Below are positions 5,978-56,946 of a DNA stretch of 64,000 nt, in pieces (positions within the stretch are counted from its first letter, which is position 1; each line of letters begins with the position of its first letter). Under the pieces are notes generated by a model, which saw only the letters and a program-made list of their open reading frames with translations, had not been told where the DNA came from and ran no database searches. The position numbers and the translations under genes are program-made. Location of the stretch: the NCBI GenBank assembly GCA_036510525.1, contig DATCDU010000020.1, positions 246 to 64,245 of the forward strand, read 5' to 3'. Source of the DNA: Minisyncoccota bacterium (GTDB taxonomy: Bacteria > Patescibacteriota > Minisyncoccia > UBA6257 > 2-01-FULL-56-20).

Positions 5978-6973
5978 ATGTTGATCGGCAAAGCATCCCC
6001 GGAGGATATGAACCTCCACCCAATTCAATATCAGTGGGCATACGACCTCTATCAACAGGCGGTACGCAACACGTGGTTCCCTCACGAGATCGCGCTCAAG
6101 GAAGACCTCTATGATTGGGAGAAGATGACGGAGGACGAACGCCACGCGGTGAAGTTCCTGATGGCATTCTTCAATCCGGGCGAGCTCATCGTCAACCGCT
6201 CGATTGCGCTCGGCATCTATCCTTATTTGAAGTCGCCGGAGTGCCATCTCTACCTTGCGAAGCAGATGTGGGAAGAAGCAAATCACTGCGTTGCCTTTGA
6301 ATACGTTTTGGAAACATTCCCGCTTGATCGCACGAACGTGTTCAACCTGCACCTCGACACGCCGTCGATGAAAGCCAAGGAAGATTACATCAATAAGTAC
6401 ATGCGCCGCATGACGGAAGACACGCTTGACGTCGAGACGCCGGAGGGCAAGAAAGATTTCATCCGCAACCTCGTGGCGACGAACATCGTGATGGAGGGCA
6501 TCTGGTTCTACAGCGGCTTCATGGTGGTGCTCTCGTTCCGCCAACGCAACCAGCTCCGCAACTTCGGCTCAATGATCAACTGGGTGATCCGCGACGAATC
6601 GCTCCACCTCAAGTTCGGCATGAACCTCATTCAGAATATTTTAGAAGAGAATGCCGAATTGCTCACGAAAGAATTTGCGAACGAGATCAAACAGATCGTG
6701 ATCGACGGTGTGGACCTTGAGGTGGCCTACAACAAAGATCTTTTCCCGCGTGGCATCCTCGGCCTGAATGCCGACTATGTGAACCAGTACGTGCAGTACG
6801 TCGCCGACCGGCGCCTGGAAGAGCTCGGCATCGGCCCGCACTACGGCGCGAAGAATCCCGCTAAGTGGATGGCGGGCGCGACCGACGTCCTCGAGCTCGT
6901 CAATTTCTTCGAGGCGCAGAACACGTCGTACGAAGTGGACAGCCACGCCGCCGATAAAAAGAAGGAAGCATAA
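5978..6973 (+). CDS. nrdB: Ribonucleoside-diphosphate reductase beta subunit (class Ia)
   Basis: Ferritin-like di-iron R2 motifs (..WEEANHCVAFEY..; ..DESLHLKF..); 331 aa. Confidence 0.95.
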   Translation: MLIGKASPEDMNLHPIQYQWAYDLYQQAVRNTWFPHEIALKEDLYDWEKMTEDERHAVKFLMAFFNPGELIVNRSIALGIYPYLKSPECHLYLAKQMWEEANHCVAFEYVLETFPLDRTNVFNLHLDTPSMKAKEDYINKYMRRMTEDTLDVETPEGKKDFIRNLVATNIVMEGIWFYSGFMVVLSFRQRNQLRNFGSMINWVIRDESLHLKFGMNLIQNILEENAELLTKEFANEIKQIVIDGVDLEVAYNKDLFPRGILGLNADYVNQYVQYVADRRLEELGIGPHYGAKNPAKWMAGATDVLELVNFFEAQNTSYEVDSHAADKKKEA

Positions 6974-7036
6974 CAATAAAAACAGCCTCTCGCCTCCAGG
7001 CAGATGACCGTTCGGCGAGAGGCTGTTTTTATTGTT
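6972..7036. repeat. Family-A palindromic element copy 1 (23-bp perfect arms, conserved 19-nt core TCCAGGCAGATGACCGTTC); doubles as the nrdB terminator
   Basis: Arms aacaataaaaacagcctctcgcc (6972-6994) and ggcgagaggctgtttttattgtt (7014-7036); the left arm starts inside the TAA stop codon; the core is identical to the one at 56976-56994. Confidence 0.65.
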
Positions 7037-7045
7037 TGGTATAAT
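7037..7045 (+). promoter_or_regulatory. Extended -10 promoter (TGgTATAAT) for the 7057 gene, giving a near-leaderless transcript
   Basis: tggtataat ends 11 nt before the ATG at 7057; no good -35. Confidence 0.35.
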
Positions 7046-7056
7046 AGAAAGACGTT

Positions 7057-7725
7057 ATGAATCTGAAGAATATCCTTATCACGTTGTCCATCGTCGCGGT
7101 GGTGATTGTATGCGTGGCGTTCTACGTCGTGTTCTATAGCGGCGGAGGGACGTACGTCGTGAGCTCTCTCACCGGCCCGAATGCGGACATCTTTGGCGCG
7201 GGGACCGAAAATACCAGCACCTTGGGCGCAAGCTCGACCGCCAGCTCTACGGCGTTCGCGTCGTCATCCGCGCTTGACGACACCGGCGCGTCCTCTTCCG
7301 CAAGTTCCACCGCCTCATCGTCGCTTACGACCACACCGGGCAACACGACGGTCGTCTCGTGGACCCAGGGCAATGAGGCGCTTTTGATCACCGGCGCCCT
7401 GATCTCGGGCGATCAGCTCACACTCGGCGTCCAGGTGGCGATGGGCAGCGTCAGCGAATGCGTGCCGCTTAACCTCCGCCTGATCGCCGACGAACAGGGC
7501 GATCTTTCGCCACCGATCACATCGCAGTTCACCTTTCCGGACACCGGCACCTGCAACGGTACCGCGGGCGAGACCTACAGCGCCCAGCCGATCGTCTTCA
7601 CGCTCAGCGATCCCAGCGCCTTCCCCATCGTCCTCACGACTGGCGGCACGGCCAACATCCTCTTTGAGGTCGTGCAGGATCCCGACGGCAGGCTGAGCGC
7701 CCAACTGCCGCCGAGCTCGGATTAA
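7057..7725 (+). CDS. Membrane-anchored Ser/Thr-rich hypothetical protein
   Basis: N-terminal TM helix (ILITLSIVAVVIVCVAFYVVF), low-complexity S/T/A region; 222 aa. Confidence 0.5.
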   Translation: MNLKNILITLSIVAVVIVCVAFYVVFYSGGGTYVVSSLTGPNADIFGAGTENTSTLGASSTASSTAFASSSALDDTGASSSASSTASSSLTTTPGNTTVVSWTQGNEALLITGALISGDQLTLGVQVAMGSVSECVPLNLRLIADEQGDLSPPITSQFTFPDTGTCNGTAGETYSAQPIVFTLSDPSAFPIVLTTGGTANILFEVVQDPDGRLSAQLPPSSD

Positions 7726-14435: not shown

Positions 14436-15002
14436 CTAAGCCGTTGGAAGAGCCTTTGGCGGATCAAACTTGCACCGCTCGCCATTCACTAGGCCGAAAC
14501 CGGTGAGATGGATAAAGAACAGGTCCCAATCGTCGCCGCCATCGGTCGTACTCACGCATTCGTCGTTGATGTACTTTGTTGCGCTATACTTTTTATCTTT
14601 GTCGTCGTAGCCGATTATGAGATGACAATTGTCTCCGTAGACGTTGCGATATCTCATGCAGCTCAAATAGCCATCTTTTTTGTAAGTATGGAATTCCGGT
14701 TCATAGAGAGCGCTACCGGTTACCTGTCGCCCATTGTCAATCCGTGTGCCCATATAGAGGACATTGAAGGGAAAGCGGTTCAGCTCTGGATTCCAGGAAA
14801 TCTCCAAACGCTGCGGCACGAAAGCGAATCTCGTTTTTGCGTCTTTCTTGAGTATTGCTTTTTCTTCTTTGTTAAATTGTCTCATAAAATTGCGAAACCC
14901 TGCCGCGAGGCAGGGATGATAAATGTTTGCTTCGACCTTTATCTTTCCCTTGCGGGCTGGATGTAGCACCGTATCGTTTCCGATTGGTTGCCGGTGGGTC
15001 AT
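14436..15002 (-). CDS. Hypothetical protein (188 aa), no recognisable domain
   Basis: ORF only; low-GC island context. Confidence 0.4.
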   Translation of the reverse strand: MTHRQPIGNDTVLHPARKGKIKVEANIYHPCLAAGFRNFMRQFNKEEKAILKKDAKTRFAFVPQRLEISWNPELNRFPFNVLYMGTRIDNGRQVTGSALYEPEFHTYKKDGYLSCMRYRNVYGDNCHLIIGYDDKDKKYSATKYINDECVSTTDGGDDWDLFFIHLTGFGLVNGERCKFDPPKALPTA

Positions 15003-15194
15003 TGAGCCAGTGCTCTCGCCACACTCTTGATAACTATTCAGTTGTGCTTACCATTCCATTCTAGCAAATGCTTCAAACAATACAAGCGACTTTCTCCGGT
15101 GTAAGCTTCATTTTTCCCGACCCAATGTATCTTGTATTGTTTCGCATCGCGCGGCCGATCGACGAGAAGACGAGGCGTGAAGTCGTGTATCAGT

Positions 15195-56937: not shown

Positions 56938-56946
56938 ATCTATATA

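Follow-up and report, generated by a model that had tools for sequence, protein, structure and literature searches.

A conserved hairpin-loop module on locus-specific palindromes in a clade of Patescibacteria

How can two hairpins carry an identical 19-nucleotide (nt) loop on stems that have next to nothing in common? The question is posed by a 64,000-nt stretch of the genome of a Minisyncoccota bacterium (GenBank assembly GCA_036510525.1, contig DATCDU010000020.1, positions 246 to 64,245), which is referred to throughout as the window and whose positions are counted from its first letter. In it the 19-mer TCCAGGCAGATGACCGTTC occurs exactly twice, and still twice when up to three mismatches are allowed, against a chance expectation of 0.01 and with none of 100 shuffles reaching two. 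At the first site, A1, positions 6972-6994 and 7014-7036 are perfectly complementary over 23 base pairs (bp) and enclose the core at 6995-7013. At the second, A2, the core at 56975-56993 lies between arms at 56946-56974 and 56994-57022 that pair perfectly over 29 bp (34 bp at 94%). An initial annotation had singled out this pair of hairpins, and direct reading bears out its statement that the two stems are unrelated except for the loop-adjacent TCGCC/GGCGA; its coordinates for A2, 56947-57023, were one base off, the correct ones being 56946-57022. It had proposed either a protein-recognised loop on terminators or a small element that inserts into palindromes or generates them from flanking DNA. 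The analysis described here places both sites in a genuine hairpin family of many copies, apparently undescribed until now, family A, in which the loop is conserved and the arms derive, at least in part, from whatever DNA lies beside them.

The family extends well beyond the window. Exact matches to the 19-mer among 185,579 species genomes number 28, of which 24 loci (25 copies) are hairpin loops in metagenome-assembled genomes (MAGs) of related Patescibacteria, while the remaining four are non-palindromic and lie in unrelated bacteria, where about four chance matches are expected for a 19-mer. A degenerate pattern applied to JGI metagenomes added 86 loci, chiefly from peat, bog and soil, and the non-redundant total is 88 family-A hairpin copies, all from related Patescibacteria of the candidate phyla radiation (CPR); one retrieved locus, L087 (L-numbers are the labels of such loci), is identical to A1. 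Copies occur at a density of about 1 per 30-80 kb, as with the two in the window, and a single MAG, MFD04780.bin.2.65, holds 10 exact copies and two variants, that is, at least 12. The initial annotation had reckoned with the case that just two copies exist genome-wide, which these numbers dispose of. The host MAGs are labelled Paceibacterota, Parcubacteria, Minisyncoccia (a class placed in the phylum Minisyncoccota, within the CPR), Saccharibacteria or 'uncultured bacterium', but because several family-A loci align collinearly to the window, with 70-88% of nucleotides identical, the hosts form one related clade despite these names. Deposited taxonomy across this clade is itself inconsistent: L005 and L012/L015/L016/L022/L028 come under 'delta proteobacterium' or 'Saccharibacteria', yet show 77-88% identity and synteny with the window and with Parcubacteria and Minisyncoccia MAGs.

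Family A belongs to no described repeat or RNA family. Covariance-model searches of Rfam 15 gave no match at the gathering threshold, and permissive scans returned only miRNA-like, Thr-leader-terminator and DUF3800-IX (22.9 versus 36.8 bits) hairpin matches. Literature searches, including surveys of CPR non-coding RNAs and tRNA genes, found no description of the element or of its core.

Alignment of the 88 copies shows that what is conserved is larger than the 19 nt first proposed: it is an apical module of about 27-31 nt, (t)tCGCC-TCCNGGCAGATGANNNTTC-GGCGa(a), that takes in the closing base pairs. These are G-C at pair 3 in 85 copies, C-G at pair 4 in 75, T-A at pair 5 in 66 and T-A at pair 6 in 53; beyond pair 6 the arm sequences are free to vary. 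Loop positions that the search pattern left free are still strongly conserved, position 4 preferring A > G > C > T and positions 14-16 being mostly CCG. Outside the module lie 6-9 bp of variable, GC-rich stem, and further out the 5' arm has an A-tract and the 3' arm a T-tract, the best 8-nt windows averaging 6.2 A and, after the stem, 6.3 T; an A-run versus T-run asymmetry that might act as a strand signal is absent across the family. The arms are thus locus-specific, as the initial annotation held, without being arbitrary: they follow the terminator build of the clade and a weak consensus, aaaaa.a.ccc.ttCGCC. Its impression that they are perfect is true of A1 and A2 and is not the rule for the family, only 18 of the 88 stems being perfect throughout and unbroken pairing from the loop outward having a median length of 13 bp. 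Pairing is nevertheless kept. Among the 18 loop-proximal pairs 95.1% of cells are paired (63.7% after shuffling), 16 of the 18 show both-sided changes, with 485 compensatory cells, and there are about 19 one-sided changes versus 76 unpaired cells; the stem mismatches comprise 20 G.T, 40 A.C and 47 others, with no preference for G.U.

The same build is found in plain hairpins on the same contigs, which have an A-tract, a GC-rich stem and a T-tract, perfect stems of 14-22 bp and loops of 0-8 nt (for example aacaaaaatacccc GAAA ggggtatttttgtt). Since plain hairpins share this architecture, the family-A hairpin can be described as the clade's bidirectional terminator-type palindrome with an extra apical module. 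Site A1 illustrates the arrangement. The open reading frame (ORF) at 5978-6973 on the plus strand encodes NrdB (PF00268, E=1.4e-78), and its 3' end runs into the hairpin: the TAA stop codon occupies 6971-6973 and the 5' arm, AACAATAAAAACAGCCTCTCGCC (6972-6994), begins at the second base of that codon, as had been noted. This arm consists of an A-tract, a GC-rich stem and the closing TCGCC at 6990-6994; the loop is sense in the nrdB transcript; and the 3' arm (7014-7036) contains the closing GGCGA at 7014-7018, the stem complement and the T-run TTTTTATTGTT at 7026-7036, giving the terminator-like order GGCGAGAGGCTG then T-run. The 3' arm had also been credited with part of the next gene's -10 region. 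It covers the T-run and the spacer/-35 region and stops short of the -10 hexamer, the -10-like sequence TGGTATAAT lying at 7037-7045, just past its end; this motif is conserved in L047. Read as an extended -10, it is only 11 nt ahead of the ATG of the next ORF (7057-7725, which has no Pfam match), a spacing that implies a predicted mRNA that is leaderless or almost so.

Where the copies lie is far from random with respect to genes. A gene end is found within 80 nt in 74 of the 88 copies, and in 25 of the 88 the 3' end of a tRNA is directly upstream. In a census blind to the loop, which took all hairpins with a stem of at least 14 bp, 24 of 77 family-A hairpins directly follow a tRNA compared with one of 28 short-loop hairpins (Fisher p=0.003). 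Immediately ahead of a tRNA 5' end there is no copy at all; a tRNA begins within 150 nt downstream in three cases, at distances of 45-67 nt. The core is preferentially sense to the upstream gene, by 18:7 at tRNAs (p=0.043) and by 36:14 at one-sided gene ends (p=0.0026). A copy at L006 7290-7360 is unusual in having an atypical stem, ccatatggatggtatatcaccatgcc, without A- or T-tracts; it sits upstream of rplJ-rplL, at the position of the L10 leader and not at a gene end.

Constraint on the loop is seen at orthologous sites, identified by comparing the 500-nt flanks of all loci with each other. The nrdB site holds family A in L047/L095/L106 as well, at 78% flank identity, with an identical core, a substantially different stem and the downstream tggtataat kept, and a tRNA-Ile site carries family A in five genomes (L022, L026, L040, L051, L086). 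Across 27 orthologous pairs in which both members are family A, divergence is 5.6% at the four free loop positions as against 27.9% at stem positions 3-16 (p=4e-8), which means that the stem changes about five times as fast as the loop. In the same pairs 72 stem base pairs have changed on both arms and 53 on one. About 20 orthologous sites lack an intact core, and only two of these contain a decayed one, L034 with a single change and L111 (orthologous to the L038 site) with 13 of 19 loop positions matching in an intact stem; the others hold something else. Since the loop changes slowly at sites that are inherited vertically, the sequence comparison points to host-level purifying selection and not to neutral decay of selfish copies. 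The loop constraint fits the earlier suggestion of a protein-recognised loop and favours, without proving, a loop that the host recognises. Further decayed copies occur at L032 418-440, which is without its 3' arm, and at L018 6523, where the stem is broken; some copies, then, are not maintained.

What the other sites hold is informative about turnover, since one orthologous site may carry family A, reversed family A, a second family termed B, a third loop family, a plain terminator (L017, L034, L043) or nothing. Reversed copies with unrelated stems are seen in L039 versus L072, L064 versus L084, L093 versus L099 and L011 versus L062. In one comparison, L014 versus L036, the loci are collinear, both at tRNA-Pro(ggg), and the stem is the same with the loop reversed.

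If the loop is held almost constant, where do the arms come from? Empty sites give an answer for part of them. The A2 site is empty in L026, where pilB and pilC are 35 nt apart, and in L089, where tRNA-Ser is 15 nt from ...ATAACACAGCCC, with no hairpin in either. The outer 13 nt of the A2 5' arm, AATAACATAGCCC (56946-56958), are also present at both empty sites and are ancestral, whereas the outer 13 nt of the 3' arm, GGGCTATGTTATT (57010-57022), are absent there. Relative to these sites the window and L040 have gained AGAAGCTCACTTCGCC-core-GGCGAAGTGAGCTTCT, the first of these being the inner 16 nt of the 5' arm, together with GGGCTATGTTATT, which is an inverted copy of the ancestral left flank. 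The L059 site repeats the pattern, its empty counterpart in L046 having GGAACTGTGCAAAG once and L059 having it as the outer 15 bp of both arms. Filled and empty alleles thus differ by an inverted, not a direct, duplication of flank. Copies beside tRNA genes tell the same story: in 10 of 24 the stem takes in the last 1-11 nt of the tRNA, an inverted copy of which is then part of the far arm (CCCGCTCCA in L004, GCTCAGCCA in L008, GCGCACCA in L022 and in the window's family-B copy I1); L026 likewise has an inverted copy of a tRNA 3' end. Arm extensions past the T-run, beyond the reach of the terminated transcript, would make sense only at the DNA level.

Reports on template switching between the arms of inverted repeats describe arms made homogeneous, spacers inverted and arms lengthened (PMC8604942; PMC13100816), and hairpins can arise de novo by template switching (PMC10710096). 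Family A displays three signatures of the process, namely arm homogenisation, loop inversion and arm expansion by copying of flank, and because these are its reported outcomes we infer that the locus-specific, often perfect and growing arms are due to ordinary replication template switching and not to machinery encoded by the element. The suggestion of an element that generates palindromes from its flanks therefore survives in half: arms are in part inverted duplications of pre-existing flank, as the two empty-site comparisons and the stems that enter tRNA ends demonstrate, but dedicated machinery is not needed to account for them. What template switching does not explain is a loop common to about 90 sites.

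Two observations concern the surroundings of such palindromes. The intergenic region of the type IV pilus genes pilB and pilC in the window (56938-57451) separates the genes by about 500 nt compared with 35 nt in L026, and contains a family-B palindrome, a promoter-like site (57297-57270, minus strand), a plain terminator hairpin (57184-57214), tRNA-Ser(tga) (57052-57124, minus strand, its 3' end facing A2 at a distance of 29 nt) and A2 itself; L023 has a different insert without a tRNA, and the site has undergone repeated rebuilding. In addition, whole tRNA genes are found inside inverted repeats of 14-20 bp (L050 5316-5452, L061 12270-12381, L059 6743-6862, L036 137-258), which may reflect arm growth by template switching or may be tRNA processing stems akin to those of rRNA.

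Family A is not alone. Family B comprises perfect palindromes of 19-35 bp around a centre of 56-104 nt that folds as a three-way junction, has at least 12 copies and gives no Rfam match. Hairpin 1 of the centre has 5 bp, GCCGC-GNNG-GCGGC, and covaries between copies, hairpin 2 is variable and the inner stem resembles CCTTTTSRGGG. Its sites are those of family A (tRNA-Ile, tRNA-Arg, gene ends), and it replaces family A at orthologous positions. The window has two copies. I3 (57340-57455), with perfect 29-bp arms and a 58-nt centre with two small hairpins, overlaps the stop codon of pilB and is missing from the orthologous L023 site. I1 (60742-60868), with perfect 33-bp arms and a 61-nt centre, has 8 nt of the tRNA-Ile 3' end in its 3' arm and occupies the tRNA-Ile site at which the five genomes mentioned above carry family A; its outer stem, GCGCACCATAAGAAA, is common to the window and L022. 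Further copies are at L013 5633-5763, L014 4474-4592, L050 2820-2946, L101 898-1025, L061 11641-11756, L069 5651-5744, L030 3057-3189, L111 1369-1496, L059 2743-2907 and L062 9453-9608. Inspection by eye shows no hammerhead-like core in family B.

Other apices also occur. AT-rich loop variants, reading TCCTGAAAGATTAATGTC, TCCTAGAAGATTAATAGTC and TCCCAAAAGATTAATGTC on the sense strand, retain the closing ttCGCC/GGCGaa (L050 12002-12081, L077 81-150, L068 1121-1199); a third loop family has an 18-nt loop, TCGTGATAAGAATAATTC (L071 1102-1159, L079 1375-1442); and short loops of 9-10 nt read GCAGATTAA (9 nt, L012 2409-2463 and L037 9202-9268) and GGAAGATTAA. Family A and its AT-rich and short-loop relatives have TCC...AGAT(G/T)A...(G)TC in common. 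The further families, of which some immediately follow tRNA-Lys or tRNA-Pro, keep the GCC/GGC closing and have a purine-rich AGAT(G/T)A or AAGAA core in loops that end TC...TC. Read on the opposite strand, the loops of all these families, the third included, begin and end with GA beside the GCC/GGC closing, and these dinucleotides could form tandem sheared G.A pairs. L017 and L090/L092 have an outer stem in common and different apices.

The reading that we favour, though with slightly less than even confidence, is that family A is an apical module of terminator hairpins, that its arms are produced by template switching and that its loop is the recognition site of a trans-acting factor, likely at the RNA level. 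In one clade of Patescibacteria the module would replace the short loop of long, bidirectional terminator-type palindromes, preferentially just 3' of tRNA genes. Template switching between the arms would keep them complementary, copy flanking DNA outward in inverted form and occasionally flip the loop, which is why the arms would be locus-specific, often perfect and able to extend into a stop codon or the 3' end of a tRNA. Purifying selection, in turn, would hold the loop for a putative factor whose most likely target is the hairpin as RNA, at the 3' ends of transcripts; recognition of RNA is the likeliest reading because copies are biased towards the sense strand, lie at the ends of transcripts and are strongly linked with tRNAs. 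A trailer hairpin of 23-34 bp would block the 3' exonucleases needed for tRNA maturation, and a large single-stranded loop of fixed sequence might offer an entry or binding point for an endonuclease or other protein that removes tRNA trailers.

Several observations weigh against this reading. All family-A copies were found through the loop sequence, so that loop conservation is partly a matter of ascertainment, which was handled only through the pattern-free loop positions and by inspection of non-A orthologous sites. About a quarter of the copies are antisense to their sole upstream gene, and at A2 the exact core is kept in four genomes though it is antisense to both neighbours, tRNA-Ser and pilC, which are the only adjacent transcription units and both on the minus strand. 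With its lack of preference for G.U the stem carries no RNA-specific signal. The 19-nt loop is longer than the 3-8 nt usual in intrinsic terminators, and a consensus terminator scan called neither A1 nor A2. Finally, no base-pairing partner of the loop and no candidate factor was found in 790 kb of related DNA, additional 11-12-mer matches to the loop falling within conserved coding sequence that resembles ribosomal protein L31.

Comparison with known systems helps to delimit the proposal. Like bidirectional intrinsic (Rho-independent) terminators, family A has a GC-rich stem, an A-tract that pairs with a T-run and a location at gene and tRNA 3' ends, A2 being an exception in its orientation. 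The differences are a loop that is conserved in sequence where that of a terminator is free, stems that reach 23-34 bp, and copies such as A2 that have no evident co-oriented transcript. The closest functional analogy is with the histone mRNA 3' stem-loop and its binding protein SLBP, the iron-responsive element (IRE) and phage boxB, in all of which the loop is constrained and the stem is kept as a helix; the histone stem-loop is, in addition, located at the transcript 3' end. These are, however, eukaryotic or phage elements with known binding proteins and a strict strand, unlike family A with its antisense minority. By analogy, then, family A would seem to work most like a bidirectional intrinsic terminator with a recognition loop of the protein-binding type, and to evolve like an inverted repeat subject to template switching.

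Dispersed repeats offer a less satisfactory match. The repetitive extragenic palindromes (REP, with BIME and REPIN, linked to RAYT) are likewise short, dispersed, extragenic, lineage-specific and multi-copy, lie at gene ends and, like family A, possibly affect termination or RNA stability. In REP, however, conservation is confined to the arms and a 5' GTAG while the middle varies, whereas family A has a conserved middle, free arms, no GTAG and tens of copies per genome, not hundreds; nor was a RAYT-like gene seen next to copies, the genes enclosed by close pairs (L006, L018) being housekeeping genes or hicAB. Miniature inverted-repeat transposable elements (MITEs; Correia in Neisseria, RUP/BOX in Streptococcus, RPE in Rickettsia) are also non-coding, dispersed and intergenic and can fold as hairpins, but have conserved inverted repeats at their ends, duplicate their target sites and measure 100-400 nt, and family A does none of this. 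The view that a conserved core on locus-specific arms is the reverse of the MITE, REP and Correia pattern is accordingly supported. DNA uptake sequences of Neisseria (DUS) and Haemophilus (USS) share with family A a short conserved sequence at terminator hairpins in a competent lineage (the window has pilB/pilC), but are present as inverted pairs in the arms at about 1 per kb, where family A has a single asymmetric copy in the loop at a far lower density. The TIGR stem-loop arrays of the TIGR-Tas system, found in phages and parasitic bacteria, resemble family A in their variable palindromic stems, short loop motifs and CPR-type hosts (PMC12045711). Their architecture does not fit: TIGR forms tandem arrays beside tas genes with two variable spacers flanked by box C/D (PMC12045711), and family A is dispersed and single, with an invariant loop and no CTGA box D.

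Three narrower interpretations of the loop were also considered. A kink-turn or box C/D loop is suggested by CAGATGA, which resembles box C, and was set aside for want of a box D and because the G.A pairs are misplaced. A small ORF starting at the ATG of the loop is not conserved in the AT-rich variants. The sequence AGGCAGAUGAC is also present in helix 5 of the E. coli 4.5S RNA of the signal recognition particle, which we take to be a coincidence.

Among explanations of a different kind, the one that survives best is an unlikely one, in which family A is a selfish, non-autonomous module of about 30 nt, inserted at hairpin apices or tRNA 3' ends by an enzyme that is encoded in trans and needs the loop. 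Such a module would account for the turnover of the six states at orthologous sites, for entire hairpins that arose de novo at the A2 and L059 sites, for near-identical stems in different contexts (tRNA-Lys, tRNA-Glu, an ORF end) and for the outer stem that L017 and L090/L092 have in common beneath different apices. Transfer RNA 3' ends are a classic integration preference, and the bias of family A towards them matches it. Selfish copies should decay, however, yet inherited loops persist while their stems diverge by about 28%. No two of the 12 copies in one MAG have the same stem, which gives no sign of a recent burst, and the 16 sites compared at 94% flank identity or more are all occupied by family A in both members, with no presence/absence polymorphism. 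Between or beside close pairs there is no gene that looks like a transposase (L006 has hicAB and rplJL there, L018 jag-yidC-rnpA), target-site duplication is not evident, and the viral contigs scanned contain no copies, which leaves a phage origin without any sign.

Appreciably less probable is a site that acts at the DNA level, where the asymmetric 19-bp core, as duplex or cruciform, would be bound in either orientation by a host nucleoid, roadblock or replication-related protein at the ends of highly transcribed genes. Both orientations are indeed tolerated and conserved, as in the A2 lineage; the stems are palindrome-like without a G.U bias; the A-tract and T-tract are symmetric; and in L022, L004 and L008 the arms extend past the T-run, out of reach of the terminated RNA. 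The significant sense bias would not be expected of an orientation-free duplex, on the other hand, and nothing would require a duplex site to lie in a hairpin loop every time, nor is there a candidate protein. Copies a few kb apart on one contig are of mixed orientation (L006, L018, L040, L114) and, pointing both ways, cannot constitute a signal that is polar with replication, which rules out a replichore-polar sequence of the Chi, KOPS or Ter type. The idea that these are ordinary terminators alike by chance or through occasional gene conversion, or an assembly or adapter artefact, draws on their terminator-like look and the weak alignment of the Rfam Thr-leader terminator to A1, and is effectively refuted by 88 non-redundant copies from independent assemblies and projects with short- and long-read style contig names, by the agreement between the four non-hairpin matches seen and the roughly four expected at random, by compensatory stem changes between orthologous copies and by how implausible it is that gene conversion would carry 19-31 nt from one stem to another without homology.

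Two other features of the window may be recorded. On the minus strand, positions 57180-57270 span about 90 nt between a promoter-like site and a perfect 14-bp terminator hairpin, contain neither an ORF nor a tRNA and may encode a small RNA; Rfam gives weak matches only (STnc70, 23.6 bits). A SAM-I riboswitch is present at 14936-15036 (minus strand), scoring 58 bits, above the gathering score, in a reduced genome.

Patescibacteria make up a large share of bacterial diversity and are mostly uncultured, and almost nothing is known of how their transcripts are ended, processed and decayed. Family A provides a concrete and abundant cis-element with a selected loop and an enrichment at tRNAs, which offers a starting point for identifying its partner, through phylogenetic profiling or pull-down, and is a possible addition to RNA family databases. 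It is also a clean natural case of palindromes that are built, perfected, extended and flipped, apparently by template switching, with both empty and filled alleles at hand, and indicates that terminator apices are modular, at least four module types being exchangeable at the same genomic site. A bolder proposal, drawn by analogy and in our view somewhat doubtful, is that the interchangeable apices (family A, the AT-rich variants, the third, 18-nt family and family B) mark transcript 3' ends, especially tRNA trailers, and are read by a dedicated RNA-binding or RNA-cleaving factor, a counterpart of the histone stem-loop and SLBP for 3'-end processing and decay in genomes without the usual RNase repertoire. 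If it is true that the loop is such a 3'-end processing tag, it would represent a new layer of RNA metabolism in reduced genomes.

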